A stretch of DNA of 32,000 nt from Abditibacterium sp. (lineage in GTDB: Bacteria; Armatimonadota; Abditibacteriia; Abditibacteriales; Abditibacteriaceae), in NCBI GenBank assembly GCA_965199495.1, contig CBDASK010000003.1, positions 441,212 to 473,211 of the forward strand. Reading direction: 5' to 3'. Both the position numbers and the translations under genes were made by a program. Every line of letters starts with the position of its first letter. The first letter of the stretch is position 1. The notes under the pieces are model-generated. The model was not told the origin of the DNA and did not search any database. It worked only from the letters and a program-made list of their open reading frames with translations. Below are positions 242-4,532 of the stretch, piece after piece.

Positions 242-2518
242 TTACGGCGAGACCAAGTAGGAGCGAATCTTACTGTTTTGACAGGCGATAAGCATAAGTG
301 CAGGTCTTCCTTCAGGATGTAGCTTCTCAGTGAGCCACTGCATCTGTTTTTTGTCCTGCTTGCTTTCTTTGCAGGGAACGTTATCTGGATGTGAATGCCA
401 TTCGCCGATGTAAGTGACTTGGTTCATCGTCACTTCGCCAACGCGTTTCAAAGTCTCTTCCATTCCTTCAACTCCCCTCTCGCAACCGCACAATTCTTCT
501 ACAGAGTCAGCAGGAGCGGGCAACGCCTGGCAAATGTAAGCTCGCTTGCGCTGCATATCCAAGTAACCCAGCAGTGCGCCGCAAGTTTCGCGTGGCAAAC
601 ATTCTGAACGGTATCCAAGGATAGTTCGCTTTAAGTCCTCGTCAAAAATTATCGTCCATCCATCTGCCTGATGCAAAACAGGTTTTGACAAAGCAATATC
701 TACACGCGTCACCGTCATCTCTTCCGAGTGACAGCGCCAAATATGCAAAACGGCCTCGGAGCTATTTGCAATGCGACGCACGGCACTGGCGCCGATGGCG
801 GCGTGCAGTGCCACGGCCTCCTGCGAGATATGCGATGTCAAATCACGGCATCCACCGCTATAGCGGCTTTGTGTTTCAGAATTGCCGAAGTATCCTTCCA
901 ACCGAGCGTCTTCAAGCAGTGCGCGCAGATATTGAAGTTCGATAACATCTAACGGAATAGTGCGATTGCCGTCTTCGGCCATCGCAACCAAATCTAAACC
1001 GCTCGGACTTAAAAATAGCGAAGCGCGCTTCGAGACCGCTTTCCAATTTAAAGCGAGATGACGTGAGACCGCAACGGAAGCGCTCATGTCCAAAATCAAT
1101 TCTGCGGCTTCGGCGCTTTTTTCTAAATCTGATGCATCAATCAACGGCGTCAAAACATCAGTAACTATGGCTTGCGCCAGAGGTGTGCCGTCAAACATTT
1201 GATTCGCTTGAGTTGCCATCTCGACTGCTTTCGCTAAACCAAAGCGGCTTCCCAGAATGGCATGACGCACGGCGTTGTGAGGCGCAAAATAGTCGCTATC
1301 GACAAGCGTCCATTGTCCCCATCCTTGACGAGCAAGATTCTCAAAGACCTGAGAACCCAAAGCACCCATTCCTACCGCGAGAACAGAAGTTTTATTACGC
1401 GAATCCTGACCGCTCAATACGGATGCTCTTTGGGCTGTCAATTTGAACTCAGGCGAAAGCATGGTCACGCGCACTTGTTTGGCTCGTTCGCGCACGGTAT
1501 CCAAAGACGTGAACAAAATTTGAGACGACGTTGCCGGTTTAGAGCCAGCAATAACGGATGGTGCTCGTCCCAAAATTTCGAGAGTGACACCAAGCTCAAC
1601 GGGATTAATATCTACTAAATGCCCAGATTTGAGGGTTTGACACCTGAATCCAAAAACATCGGTGGCCTCAGCATTTTGTCCGGCGTTGCGTGCTTTTGGA
1701 ATTCCGACTACTAAAATAGTTCCGACAGCATTTGGCAGTAGCTGACTCGCTTTTTCCTGAAGTCGCCTCTTTAGATTGGCCGCGAGATCGTAACCTGCAC
1801 GCTGACAAAGTTGGTCGAGATCATATAACGTTACCGGTTCAGCTCTTATGATGCCATGTTCTTGAACTGGTAATTGAAAGGGGAAAAGCAGGAAGGGCTG
1901 ACCTGGACGCCCTTGTGCCATGCTGCCCAGCCTGTCTGCAATTAGGATTTCTCTCTCTCCGGTGTTCGCGCTATAAACCATCAACATTTCCAGAGCGGAC
2001 GAGGTAAAAATATCAGGAGGCAAAATCAAGGGACGACTAAATCCGCCGATGAATGGCTCCAGACTTTGATCCTCTTTGTGCAAGGTGCCGCAAGCGGTTT
2101 CTCTAAGCCACCATAATATCCTCTCCCCCAGCAACGCGGGAGTCCAACGCAAGTTAAGGTCTTCTCTACGTTCTGCAAATAGACACAGGCTCTTGGGAAA
2201 TTCCGATCTGGAAAGGTTCAAATGCGGGACTTGCGGGAAGTCCTCGCGCATGGACACGACTTCGGGTAAATGACTGGGGTCATCACCAAACAGCACCGCC
2301 AATTGCTCTTCATAACGGATGTCGTTAATCGAACGTTGCGGCACCTGGGGTTTAGCGGTGACAATGATGATTTCAGAACCATTGATTTTGTAGCACTCGC
2401 CCAGTTCAAGATAAGGATTTAAATCGGACGAGACATAGCGAGCAAATGACTTCGCCCGCTCCAAAGACAATTCAGTGACCGAGATGAGCGACTCAGACTC
2501 GAAAAGTTCCATATTCAA
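242..2518 (-). CDS. E2-like / ThiF-E1 adenylation / JAB (JAMM) triple-domain fusion protein
   Basis: 758-aa ORF. N-terminus: VPHLNLSRSEFPKSLCLF (H99-L-N101, ten residues, Cys112) resembles the E2 HPN...Cys active site. Middle: VLAVGMGALGSQVFENLARQGWGQWTLVDSDYF has the Rossmann GxGxxG plus acidic nucleotide-binding residue of ThiF/MoeB/E1. C-terminus: RETCGALLG ... GEWHSHPDNVPCKESKQD gives E644 plus HxH-x8-S-x2-D, JAMM-like. The track start is TTG at 2518, overlapping the upstream stop; the first ATG is at 2512. Confidence 0.9.
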   Translation of the reverse strand: MNMELFESESLISVTELSLERAKSFARYVSSDLNPYLELGECYKINGSEIIIVTAKPQVPQRSINDIRYEEQLAVLFGDDPSHLPEVVSMREDFPQVPHLNLSRSEFPKSLCLFAERREDLNLRWTPALLGERILWWLRETACGTLHKEDQSLEPFIGGFSRPLILPPDIFTSSALEMLMVYSANTGEREILIADRLGSMAQGRPGQPFLLFPFQLPVQEHGIIRAEPVTLYDLDQLCQRAGYDLAANLKRRLQEKASQLLPNAVGTILVVGIPKARNAGQNAEATDVFGFRCQTLKSGHLVDINPVELGVTLEILGRAPSVIAGSKPATSSQILFTSLDTVRERAKQVRVTMLSPEFKLTAQRASVLSGQDSRNKTSVLAVGMGALGSQVFENLARQGWGQWTLVDSDYFAPHNAVRHAILGSRFGLAKAVEMATQANQMFDGTPLAQAIVTDVLTPLIDASDLEKSAEAAELILDMSASVAVSRHLALNWKAVSKRASLFLSPSGLDLVAMAEDGNRTIPLDVIELQYLRALLEDARLEGYFGNSETQSRYSGGCRDLTSHISQEAVALHAAIGASAVRRIANSSEAVLHIWRCHSEEMTVTRVDIALSKPVLHQADGWTIIFDEDLKRTILGYRSECLPRETCGALLGYLDMQRKRAYICQALPAPADSVEELCGCERGVEGMEETLKRVGEVTMNQVTYIGEWHSHPDNVPCKESKQDKKQMQWLTEKLHPEGRPALMLIACQNSKIRSYLVSP

Positions 2519-3639
2519 CCCGCGCGGGTGGGAGTTTGTGTGGCTGCTGACGCCGGAGCCGGAGTTGAAGCAGACTCGATTTCAAAACCAGAGCTACCGA
2601 TGTTCACGACCATCGGTTTAGGTGCTGTTGGCGAAGGATGCTCCATCGTAACTTTGAACTGCCCATTAACACGATTGATGTTTTCGACGTGATAATTTTT
2701 GGATTGAAAGTGAGGCGGCTGCGTTTGCTCCTGACTCATCACGCGTTCGCTGGTGGAAATAACCAAAGCTCGCTCCGACGCCATTTCAAACCATTCTTTG
2801 ATCAGGGGTTTGGGCACTGTTTTCGTTGCACCTTTGATGTCGCTCAAAGATTTGTAGCTACAATGATGAGGCAACTTGAAAACATCGAACTCCAAGCGGT
2901 GCTGGTTACCATGCTTTTTGGATATGCTCACGATATCCTCCATTGAGACCCATGTGGTATCGCCACCAAAAATCACCCTTGTTTCAACGCCGCCACTCAC
3001 AAAAACGGTCTGCATCACAATGGAATCTTGATTGCGATCTTCGACTTCTCGTTCGTTAATCCGGTGGGCGTGCGGCGAGTGCAGAAAGAACTCGACTTTA
3101 TCCTCATCTTTGGTAAAGCCCTCGATAGTCTGGCCCGCATCGGTAATAAGATGTTTGCGCGATTCCAGTGTCAAACCTTCGCCTTCGAGCCACTGTTTCA
3201 AACGCGCGGGTCGCCCAAAGACGCGAATGCCTTCACCTTTTTTGAGCCGGTGTCTGGCCTCAGCGCGCCAAATGCGCGAGTCGTCCTCGACGCCAGCCTC
3301 AGTGATTGCGCCAGAAGGCACCCACAGCGTTTTGATTTTGTAGCGGCCTTCGCCCTGGTATTTTTGTGCGTGTTCCAGATGGAAGAAGTCGGCTGCTCCC
3401 GCAATATGATCGTTGTCGATATGGGTGATACAGAAAACATCGACATCGGTTCTCTTCTTGGCTGCCAGCTTCGCCGAAATATCCGATTTGATGTCCCATC
3501 TCAAGTCAAACTTATTGGTTGAACTCTTGACGTTCGCGTAATCAAGGACAAAAACTCGGTCGAGACCCGAAACGGTCTCCTCGAAGTCAATGAAAAGAGT
3601 GTCGGCGTTGCCAAGAGGATAAAAGGTGAGTTGGTGCAT
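2515..3639 (-). CDS. MBL-fold metallo-hydrolase, ComEC/Rec2-like (probable nuclease), with a low-complexity C-terminal tail ending in Gly
   Basis: 374 aa. MBL motifs occur in order: YPLGNADTLFIDF, FCITHIDNDHIAG (HxDxDH variant of HxHxDH), FFLHSPHAH, IFGGDTTW, FKLPHHCSY (like the ComEC-type HHGS motif). The tail is ...ESASTPAPASAATQTPTRAG followed by the stop. The stop TGA at 2515-2517 overlaps or abuts the next gene's start. Confidence 0.9.
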   Translation of the reverse strand: MHQLTFYPLGNADTLFIDFEETVSGLDRVFVLDYANVKSSTNKFDLRWDIKSDISAKLAAKKRTDVDVFCITHIDNDHIAGAADFFHLEHAQKYQGEGRYKIKTLWVPSGAITEAGVEDDSRIWRAEARHRLKKGEGIRVFGRPARLKQWLEGEGLTLESRKHLITDAGQTIEGFTKDEDKVEFFLHSPHAHRINEREVEDRNQDSIVMQTVFVSGGVETRVIFGGDTTWVSMEDIVSISKKHGNQHRLEFDVFKLPHHCSYKSLSDIKGATKTVPKPLIKEWFEMASERALVISTSERVMSQEQTQPPHFQSKNYHVENINRVNGQFKVTMEHPSPTAPKPMVVNIGSSGFEIESASTPAPASAATQTPTRAG

Positions 3640-3815: not shown

Positions 3816-4532
3816 TTACAAATCTTCAATGGCTTCCAGCAGACGTAAAGCGTAAGCCTCTGCTCCAAGCCTCACGAAATTCTCGTTAACAACAAAAAAC
3901 CAAACTACAAAAGCGAGAATACACGCTCCCAAACTGAAAAGAGTTAATGGATTGGCAACTGTTACGCCATTAAAATCTCGGTAGAGCTTGAAACCTGACA
4001 AGGCGATCCCGCTTAGAGAAGAAGCGATCCCGTAATGGCGTAAGCCATAAAGGTTGCGCCGAAATCCGTAATTCATGTTTTCTTCTTTAACTAATGGAAA
4101 CTTTTTATCGTCACGCGTTAACCGGAGAAGAAAATTTCCACAAGAACGATACTGTTCATCGGCGGCGGCATGATCGTGGATTTCCTGCTGTGGAGTTGGA
4201 ATTTGAACGTTCTCAATCGCTCGCTGGAGTTTGGCGTGATAGCGTTCTTTGGTAACTCGATCAATCGCAATGTCATTGTGCCTCAACATCAAAACAGACG
4301 GTAAACCACCCCACTTTTGAACCAGTTGAGACTCCGCCTTCTTGCCAGCATCACGGGCAATAGAAATCAAAATAAATAGCACTCCGGCAGATACAGCCAC
4401 GCCCGTCACGGGTTCGGCCAGGCTCTTGATGTTTGGCACCCAGGCAAGAAGGCCAAACAAAACAGGAAGTAGCGTCAAAAGCGCCGGAGAAAGCCTGGCT
4501 CGCAGATTATAAGCATCCATCAATTTGTTCAT
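3816..4532 (-). CDS. Four-TM membrane protein of unknown function (candidate effector or partner of the MBL/E2-E1-JAB genes)
   Basis: 238 aa. Two N-terminal hydrophobic helices (LSPALLTLLPVLFGLLAWV; VTGVAVSAGVLFILISIA) are followed by a charged soluble region of about 100 aa and two C-terminal helices (GIASSLSGIALSGF; LTLFSLGACILAFVVWFFVV). Same strand as the downstream genes. No family recognised. Confidence 0.7.
   Translation of the reverse strand: MNKLMDAYNLRARLSPALLTLLPVLFGLLAWVPNIKSLAEPVTGVAVSAGVLFILISIARDAGKKAESQLVQKWGGLPSVLMLRHNDIAIDRVTKERYHAKLQRAIENVQIPTPQQEIHDHAAADEQYRSCGNFLLRLTRDDKKFPLVKEENMNYGFRRNLYGLRHYGIASSLSGIALSGFKLYRDFNGVTVANPLTLFSLGACILAFVVWFFVVNENFVRLGAEAYALRLLEAIEDL

Follow-up and report, generated by a model that had tools for sequence, protein, structure and literature searches.

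A probable chromosomal 6A-MBL defence locus with one accessory membrane-protein gene in Abditibacterium sp.

We analysed a 32,000-nucleotide stretch of the Abditibacterium sp. contig CBDASK010000003.1 (positions 441,212 to 473,211 of the forward strand; hereafter the window), in which three open reading frames (ORFs) at 242-4532 form an operon on the minus strand (Table 1). In order of transcription they encode a 238-residue membrane protein, a 374-residue enzyme with a metallo-beta-lactamase (MBL) fold and a fusion protein in which an E2-like domain, a linker, an E1 adenylation domain and a JAB metallopeptidase domain follow one another. A previous reading of the same letters (the original prediction) had described these genes as a candidate defence system controlled by protein conjugation. 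In our analysis the locus emerges, with a probability of roughly 0.8, as a 6A-MBL anti-phage system carried by the chromosome within an integrated mobile island, with one accessory gene, the one encoding the membrane protein.

Both proteins of the core pass the cut-offs of curated NCBIfam equivalog models, and the core is therefore the known 6A-MBL system. The fusion scores 576.7 bits over residues 60-744 against NF058523.1 (anti-phage 6A-MBL system cap2_3 protein; cut-off 320), and the MBL enzyme scores 365.5 bits against NF058524.1 (anti-phage 6A-MBL system MBL-fold protein; cut-off 220). The core is thus already named and curated, and the copy described here is a fairly divergent further member; standard annotation (PGAP/NCBIfam) would label the pair, which alters nothing that is known.

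Table 1. Features of the operon and of its surroundings (window coordinates; residue numbers of the fusion count from the TTG start)
Feature	Position	Strand	Remarks
Three-ORF operon	242-4532	minus	order: membrane protein, MBL, fusion
Accessory membrane-protein gene	4532..3816	minus	238 aa
6A-MBL enzyme gene	3639..2515	minus	374 aa; predicted ComEC-like metallo-beta-lactamase-fold phosphodiesterase
Cap2_3 fusion gene (E2-linker-E1-JAB)	2518..242	minus	758 aa from TTG 2518
Alternative start of the fusion	ATG 2512	minus	756 aa
E2 (UBC-like) domain	2000..2347	minus	residues 58-173; Pfam Prok-E2_A
Linker domain	1415..1999	minus	residues ~174-368; aligned to the Cap2 linker in its C-terminal half
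E1 adenylation domain	719..1414	minus	residues ~369-600; Pfam ThiF, PADLOC E1-E2
JAB/JAMM metallopeptidase domain	266..670	minus	residues ~617-751; Pfam Prok-JAB, PADLOC JAB
Disordered C-terminal tail of the MBL enzyme	2518..2568	minus	residues 358-374, ending ...T-Q-T-P-T-R-A-G-stop
Spacer between membrane-protein and MBL genes	3640-3815	minus	176 nt
Extended -10-like element TGCTATAAT	3695-3687	minus	47 nt before the MBL ATG; pattern match only
Terminator-like hairpin	90..112	minus	10 pairs (6 G-C) and a T-rich run; 130 nt past the fusion stop
Large serine recombinase gene, 3' end	1-210	plus	converges on the fusion gene
HTH_3, Mrr_cat and YdjM cassette	4768-6445	plus	divergent from the membrane-protein gene; kept in contig L081
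Pentapeptide-repeat protein with C-terminal TIR domain	8007-9095	minus	

Operons that combine an E2-E1-JAB fusion with an MBL gene were described by Iyer, Burroughs and Aravind in 2006, who listed them in row 6a of their own Table 1 as occurring 'usually with two genes' (PMC1779556); this is a survey of the kind that the original prediction had mentioned. The prediction's further remark that no functional study was known has been overtaken, as a 2026 review cites van den Berg et al. (2024, Cell Host Microbe 32:1427) as validating 6A-MBL, the system having been predicted and then confirmed to be anti-phage in Pseudomonas aeruginosa. A 2025 preprint counts 6A-MBL among the known jumbo-phage defences, and the Corbett laboratory places 'Type II CBASS/Pycsar/MBL' in one group, whose pathways use a fused E2-E1 to conjugate their enzyme to unknown targets. 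The proposal that conjugation machinery controls the MBL enzyme in defence agrees with both the equivalog assignments and this literature. Relative to the descriptions found, the sole additions are the family of the accessory membrane protein and a tail on the MBL enzyme that is specific to fusion-linked members.

The layout of the three genes was as originally read. At the junction of the MBL and fusion genes the direct read is ...ACC CGC GCG GGT TGA ATATG, in which the TTG of the fusion overlaps the MBL stop codon as TTGA (2518-2515) and 2 nt separate that stop from the first ATG; the public gene call for an identical sequence begins at this ATG and gives 756 residues. With the two genes overlapping or abutting in this way, their co-translation is very probable. 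In the spacer that precedes the MBL gene, no two-hexamer promoter was listed by the consensus scan and no terminator-like hairpin was found. The spacer does hold an extended -10-like element, so the MBL-fusion pair may have a promoter apart from that of the membrane-protein gene. The hairpin beyond the fusion gene is weak evidence for a terminator, as the region holds 10 such sites against a shuffled expectation of 6.2 +/- 2.2, which is not clearly higher; overall, the counts of the promoter and terminator scans were no better than those for shuffled sequence. The operon is flanked by a divergent HTH gene on one side and a convergent recombinase gene on the other.

A Pfam profile search of the fusion returned Prok-E2_A (residues 58-173, E 1.5e-20), ThiF (residues 369-479, E 1e-10) and Prok-JAB (residues 628-746, E 4e-9) in series, all above the gathering score and in the domain order that had been proposed. 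The PADLOC models for the E1-E2 protein of CBASS (the anti-phage signalling system based on cyclic oligonucleotides) also match, as does the PADLOC JAB model (E 1.1e-21), and the NCBIfam Cap3 model matches weakly. In a profile search of the PDB, the best match was Cap2 (7TO3), with profile positions 231-489 aligning to residues 253-503 of 7TO3, which comprise the Cap2 linker and adenylation domain, while the C-terminus of the fusion was matched by the Cap3-like peptidase 9ILD. By these sequence matches, the JAB domain is the equivalent of Cap3.

Residue conservation was assessed in an alignment of 24 sequences that are 33-95% identical to the window protein. The E2 domain carries the motif P-H99-L-N101 followed by the putative catalytic Cys112 (codon 2185-2183); H99 is invariant and N101 is kept in at least 90% of the sequences. 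Cys112 is present in 24 of 24, and a conserved cysteine at this place had been named beforehand as a point on which the E2 assignment could fail. The E1 domain has the nucleotide-binding loop G383-x-G385-A-L-G388-S and D409, and its invariant residues are G383, G385, A386, G388, S389, D409, R418, K430 and D477, to which we add R552, C557 and D559, which had escaped the earlier reading. The JAMM residues E644, H708-x-H710, S719 and D722 are all invariant. The residues originally named for the E2, E1 and JAMM sites are thus invariant or nearly so, and, together with the metal site of the MBL enzyme described below, all of the catalytic residues are intact.

The linker between the E2 and E1 domains had been called unassigned, which is only partly so given that its C-terminal half can be assigned to the Cap2 linker through the alignment with 7TO3. 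Five of its residues (P228, P274, R277, E284 and F291) are invariant. The Cap2 linker has been likened to the N-terminal domain of ATG7 and positions the E2 (Ledvina et al. preprint). Judging from its position relative to C548 of Cap2, Cys557 (codon 850-848) is the probable cysteine of the E1 crossover loop.

More than 190 homologues with the length and architecture of the fusion were present in a large protein collection. The closest is 95% identical and the next 54%; relatives in the range of 54-95% came from metagenomes only, and the nearest species-level ones are ∼37% identical. We surveyed synteny with one genome per species and, from the 513 or more relatives of the fusion that this gave, retained 80 loci from many phyla. 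In 78 of these the gene immediately upstream of the fusion gene, on the same strand, encodes an MBL homologue, and the other two end at a contig edge; the gap between the two genes is typically -4 to +10 nt. Loss of this pairing among homologues had been set in advance as an observation that would count against the proposal, and the pairing is kept across these species-level loci.

The original prediction had noted the absence of a CD-NTase (the nucleotidyltransferase of CBASS) and of a gene for a ubiquitin-like protein (Ubl), and the ORF list and the Pfam and PADLOC scans bear this out. None of the seven proteins scanned matched a CD-NTase in Pfam or PADLOC, the same two scans and the ORF list gave no beta-grasp gene in or beside the operon, and the operon itself has no room for a separate Ubl gene. 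Two small ORFs were considered as hidden Ubl candidates and rejected. The 67-residue ORF at 27-230 (minus strand) has no family match and no homologue in the 80 related loci, and it is probably spurious because the opposite strand holds here the 3' end of the convergent serine-recombinase gene. The other, of 88 residues at 3501-3767, overlaps the start of the MBL gene in a different frame.

The MBL enzyme has the motif H73-I-D-N-D77-H78 (3423-3406), as had been read, and its putative metal ligands H73, D77, H78, H187, D227, H258 and H259 are invariant in 44 homologues; D75 also belongs to the metal-site residues. The Pfam Lactamase_B match is below threshold. An AlphaFold2 model was obtained with a mean confidence (pLDDT) of 88.9 and a template-modelling score (pTM) of 0.88, and a Foldseek search with this model ranked the MBL domain of ComEC first (9ic4, E 5.5e-12), followed by Pce (2bib, E 2.4e-11) and then NAPE-PLD (E 7e-7). 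In PADLOC, the enzyme matches the MBL modules of three other defence systems, namely RTasMBL (DRT), LmuA (Lamassu) and Avs1a (Avs1). On the strength of the model, 'ComEC-like', as the enzyme was originally described, seems a fair label. The enzyme may be a metal-dependent phosphodiesterase, and if so it would most probably be a nuclease.

The last 17 residues of the MBL enzyme (358-374) have pLDDT values below 50 and are predicted to be disordered. Within this tail R372, A373 and G374 are conserved in at least 90% of sequences, and among the 120 closest homologues 117 have an [RK][AVMH]G motif near the C-terminus, mostly as P-R-A-G. The glycine of the motif is the terminal residue in 76 of the 120, and in ∼40 it is followed by 1-5 residues (PRAG-DR, PRAG-GR and PRAG-RSRE are examples). 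A comparison that was unselected for the fusion was possible in loci that had been gathered around the membrane protein. Here the C-terminal glycine motif was present in all 11 of the full-length MBL enzymes whose gene is followed by a fusion gene, compared to 0 of the 45 with no fusion gene after them; the 11 tails comprise seven of the PRAG type, three of the form Y-G-S-K-x-x and one M-H-G. As the motif co-varies with the presence of the fusion, the C-terminus of the MBL enzyme looks like the equivalent of a Ubl end. This co-variation is the strongest evidence that we have for a 'ubiquitin-like' C-terminus, and it argues strongly for one. The P-R-A-G tail with its short extensions also offers a mutable handle on what gets conjugated, and where.

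In type II CBASS, the tails of CD-NTases are conjugated by Cap2 and cleaved by Cap3 (Ledvina et al. preprint). By homology of the fusion to these two proteins, and from the tail analysis, we infer a mechanism in which the MBL enzyme itself would serve as the ubiquitin-like protein. Its flexible tail, ...P-T-R-A-G374, would enter the E1 site and be adenylated, would then be carried as a thioester on Cys557 and subsequently on Cys112 of the E2 domain, and would finally be ligated to an amine of a target. The JAB domain would undo this linkage, and in relatives with 1-5 residues past the glycine it would first trim the tail to expose the glycine. Conjugation might thereby arm or position the ComEC-like phosphodiesterase, which would most probably be a nuclease, during infection. 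The membrane protein would act as a dedicated partner of the MBL enzyme rather than as a target of conjugation, and this is the least certain step.

The membrane protein had been described as having four transmembrane (TM) segments. Three of these are strong in the hydropathy profile (residues 14-32, 41-59 and 197-215) and a fourth helix, at 165-188, is weaker, making four segments a reasonable model rather than a certainty. The AlphaFold2 model is all-helical (pLDDT 89.6), and the distribution of charge suggests that both termini and the domain of ∼100 residues between helices 2 and 3 are cytoplasmic. This helical domain has the conserved motifs RDAGK, WGG-PS and E-N-x-N-Y-G-F-R-R-N, and the residues R60, G63, R140, G156, R159 and N160 are invariant in the family. 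No match was found in Pfam, PADLOC, PHROGs or NCBIfam, and as no PADLOC model matched, the protein is not the catalogued PDC-M48A partner. Foldseek gave no significant match in the PDB or BFVD; the best hits, stators of the MotA/PomA type, reached only E ∼0.5 with a TM-score of ∼0.26, and we do not propose a relationship to them.

Among 1.84 billion cluster representatives, a profile search identified 3,495 members of uniform length for this membrane-protein family, counted as clusters at 50% identity. The family, detected with an iterated hidden Markov model, occurs in 39 of the 80 fusion-centred loci and mostly adjacent to the gene pair. In these loci its gene usually lies directly downstream of the fusion gene, often overlapping it, and only a handful have it upstream of the MBL gene as in the window; in a locus whose MBL enzyme is 65% identical to that of the window, the gene is adjacent but divergent. 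We also carried out the reciprocal survey around the membrane-protein family, with 80 metagenomic and 10 IMG/VR loci, 77 of which were informative. The gene directly upstream was an MBL gene in 47 and a fusion gene in 18, together 65 of the 77. The membrane protein therefore habitually accompanies ComEC-like MBL enzymes, whether or not the conjugation machine is present, and this two-way synteny backs the earlier view that it belongs to the system. A column-by-column comparison of 61 fusion-linked and 46 fusion-less family members revealed no lysine conserved specifically in the former, and the membrane protein was dropped as a candidate conjugation target. As to its role, our guess would be that it is dedicated to ComEC-like MBL enzymes as their partner and might act as a membrane anchor or sensor, or perhaps as a co-effector.

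The position taken by this gene next to the core pair can be taken by others. A patatin-like phospholipase (for example L007, 2898-4073, and L183, 7310-8644) is encoded in 21 of the 80 loci, in 18 of them directly after the fusion; it matched no PADLOC or NCBIfam model and is thus not a recognisable CapV. Other small multi-TM proteins occupy the slot in a few more loci, ∼19 of the 80 have a second MBL gene, and in 10 with ample flanks no third gene could be recognised. The swap is also seen inside the clade of the window protein, where a fusion that is 49% identical is followed by a patatin gene. In all, three quarters of the species-level loci have a membrane-directed third gene, either of the TM family or for a patatin, which suggests that the two-gene definition under-describes 6A-MBL.

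How much weight the proposed mechanism can bear depends on several points that tell against it. Cys557 is placed as the probable E1 cysteine by position rather than by direct alignment, and the probable conjugation of the MBL tail is argued from the analogy with CD-NTases and from tail statistics. The structural neighbours of the MBL enzyme include a nuclease (ComEC) but also a phospholipase D and the pneumococcal phosphorylcholine esterase Pce, which is of the teichoic-acid type. Furthermore, the 176 nt that part the membrane-protein gene from the MBL gene leave room for the former to be its own transcription unit, and since about half of the 6A-MBL loci lack the family, the membrane protein cannot be essential to the core. 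The distance, the extended -10-like element before the MBL gene, the two proteins of the curated definition, the 2006 description and the divergent orientation in one relative would all be expected if the membrane-protein gene were an independent neighbour, with a two-gene 6A-MBL pair as the unit and 3816-4532 as separate cargo of the island. We consider this very unlikely given that the adjacency recurs across phyla far beyond chance and that, in the reciprocal survey, the family stands essentially always beside a ComEC-like MBL gene.

At the opposite extreme, the 238-residue protein could found an unrecognised class of membrane effectors or sensors, and 6A-MBL could be a three-part, CBASS-like relay rather than a two-gene nuclease, made up of a conjugation-primed MBL enzyme, the Cap2_3 regulator and a membrane output (TM protein or patatin). 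We regard so broad a revision as unlikely. In a specific form of the idea, which is the main rival of the preferred reading but to which we give a still lower probability, the MBL enzyme would be the upstream enzyme, equivalent to the CD-NTase and primed by conjugation, that switches on the swappable membrane output and thereby leads to membrane damage and abortive infection. The modular third slot resembles that of CBASS, the exchange for a patatin takes place within a single clade, and the strongly conserved, Arg-rich cytoplasmic domain of the TM protein could bind a ligand or partner. Against this, at least 10 of the 80 loci, including the widespread enterobacterial plasmid version, have ample flanks and no recognisable third gene, so the core must work alone; the enzyme is kin to modules that hold effector positions in Lamassu, DRT and Avs1; neither the TM protein nor the patatin has a recognisable small-molecule-binding domain; and no lysine marks the fusion-linked TM proteins. 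Competition between mobile elements or their maintenance (anti-plasmid activity, activity against integrative and conjugative elements, or post-segregational killing) might instead be the main role, since the system, at the margin of an integrated element, has a large serine recombinase gene next to it and relatives adjoin integrases, relaxases and Tn7-like genes. Homologues of the fusion were present in 332 plasmid records (145 of which are conjugative) and in none of 50,697 phage records; the plasmid set includes two-gene versions, on enterobacterial IncF plasmids, that have a WYL regulator in divergent orientation. Mobile carriage of this kind is, however, what anti-phage systems typically show and cannot tell the roles apart, and 6A-MBL is curated as anti-phage and cited as experimentally protective against phage. 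Of all the alternatives we consider this one the least likely.

With curated 6A-MBL the locus shares the triple-module fusion directly after a specialised, co-oriented MBL gene, the lack of Ubl and nucleotidyltransferase genes and the carriage on a mobile element. It differs in the adjacent membrane-protein gene, which lies outside both the two-protein definition and the 2006 description, and in the low identity of its fusion to the nearest species-level relatives. The resemblance to type II CBASS extends from the E2-linker-E1 part (homologous to Cap2) and the JAB domain (to Cap3) to the flexible, glycine-ending tail of the partner enzyme, which sometimes has a removable extension, as CD-NTase tails do, and to the patatin or TM gene that many 6A-MBL loci carry. 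The locus, however, lacks a CD-NTase and any recognisable sensor domain for cyclic nucleotides, the enzyme proposed to be conjugated has a hydrolase fold whereas that of CBASS is a nucleotide cyclase, and Cap2 and Cap3 are fused in one chain.

The Bil (BilABCD) and Bub systems likewise use E1, E2 and JAB activities in anti-phage defence, with the JAB protein maturing and deconjugating the modifier. In them the beta-grasp Ubl is encoded separately and E1 and E2 are distinct proteins, either canonical (Bil) or serine-based (Bub), whereas the window operon is without a Ubl gene and its E1 and E2 are of the Cap2/ATG7-like type. PDC-M48, a PADLOC candidate system whose component B is a ComEC-like MBL, is linked to the locus through the membrane-protein family, which most often stands directly after an MBL gene that matches PDC-M48B, often in prophages. 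The MBL enzyme of the window has no PDC-M48B match, and MBL enzymes of the PDC-M48B type have neither the glycine tail nor an E2-E1-JAB fusion beside them.

This second arrangement, an MBL gene followed by a gene of the TM family without E2-E1-JAB, is widespread (L082, 4918-6762; L172-L179, around 4800-6750; and many of the loci L092-L171). One such pair lies in a Bradyrhizobium prophage beside lysozyme/lysis and tail genes, and the pair is present on 8 of the 10 IMG/VR viral contigs. The MBL enzyme of the module has ∼360 residues, matches PDC-M48B with E values of 7e-151 to 1e-44, and is remotely homologous to the 6A MBL enzyme (hhalign probability 95%), with which it has the motifs T-H-x-D-x-D-H and P-H-H-(G/C)-S in common. 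The usual tie of the TM family to this tail-less ComEC-like MBL enzyme in prophages is a sign of a two-gene module that is widespread and uncharacterised. The same enzyme (L082, 4918-5994; L172, 4887-5990) matches residues ∼620-885 of the 1077 of PHROG 7043 (E 1e-38 to 1e-57), and as PHROG 7043 is annotated as 'tail protein', some phage tail proteins carry a ComEC-like MBL module. This match bears on which substrate the ComEC-like MBL fold attacks.

The GC content is 0.47-0.50 over the first 5 kb of the window compared to 0.56-0.65 in its right two thirds. This lower-GC setting, together with a neighbouring Mrr-like protein (Mrr_cat, E 3.8e-21) and a pentapeptide-TIR protein (TIR_2, E 1.8e-16), is in keeping with the defence-island context that had been proposed. 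Positions 1-7904 are 90% identical to a 39-kb metagenomic contig (L081), in which the recombinase gene is complete and encodes 547 residues with Resolvase, Recombinase and Zn_ribbon_recom domains; beyond it lie PDDEXK_1, DUF932 and ParB genes. At the position of the pentapeptide-TIR gene, contig L081 has instead a 613-residue CAP12-PCTIR TIR protein and a methyltransferase. Since the two sequences diverge over 7904-9625 and each has other cargo there, this interval looks like a variable slot for defence cargo (a hotspot). The window proteins are recorded on a contig of 4.72 Mb, which places the island on the chromosome, and no tRNA that could mark an integration site lies within the window.

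In the cassette divergent from the membrane-protein gene, the HTH_3 protein has a weak capH-like match, the Mrr_cat protein corresponds to the PADLOC candidate PDC-S02 (E 3.8e-26) and the YdjM-family member is an inner-membrane protein. Next to it, 6591-7992 (plus strand) holds two overlapping ORFs of 295 and 177 residues. The former has no Pfam match and the counterpart of the latter in contig L081 has a weak Phage_rep_O match; both may represent replication functions of the mobile element. Regulatory genes accompany some relatives. An HTH-Peptidase_M78 fusion (CapH/CapP-like) lies upstream in L021 (3416-4666), the one locus scanned, and probably in four other loci that cluster with it, and a divergent WYL-domain protein stands beside 6A-MBL on an E. 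coli IncF plasmid (L090, 1706-2566). The higher-GC part of the window, which is unrelated to the 6A-MBL finding, contains on the minus strand (12463-22470 and 28772-31003) an efflux set of the heavy-metal resistance-nodulation-division type, with an AcrB/CzcA-like pump (1116 residues), an HlyD/CusB-like adaptor (899 residues) and an outer-membrane factor (606 residues), as well as a P-type ATPase with an HMA domain.

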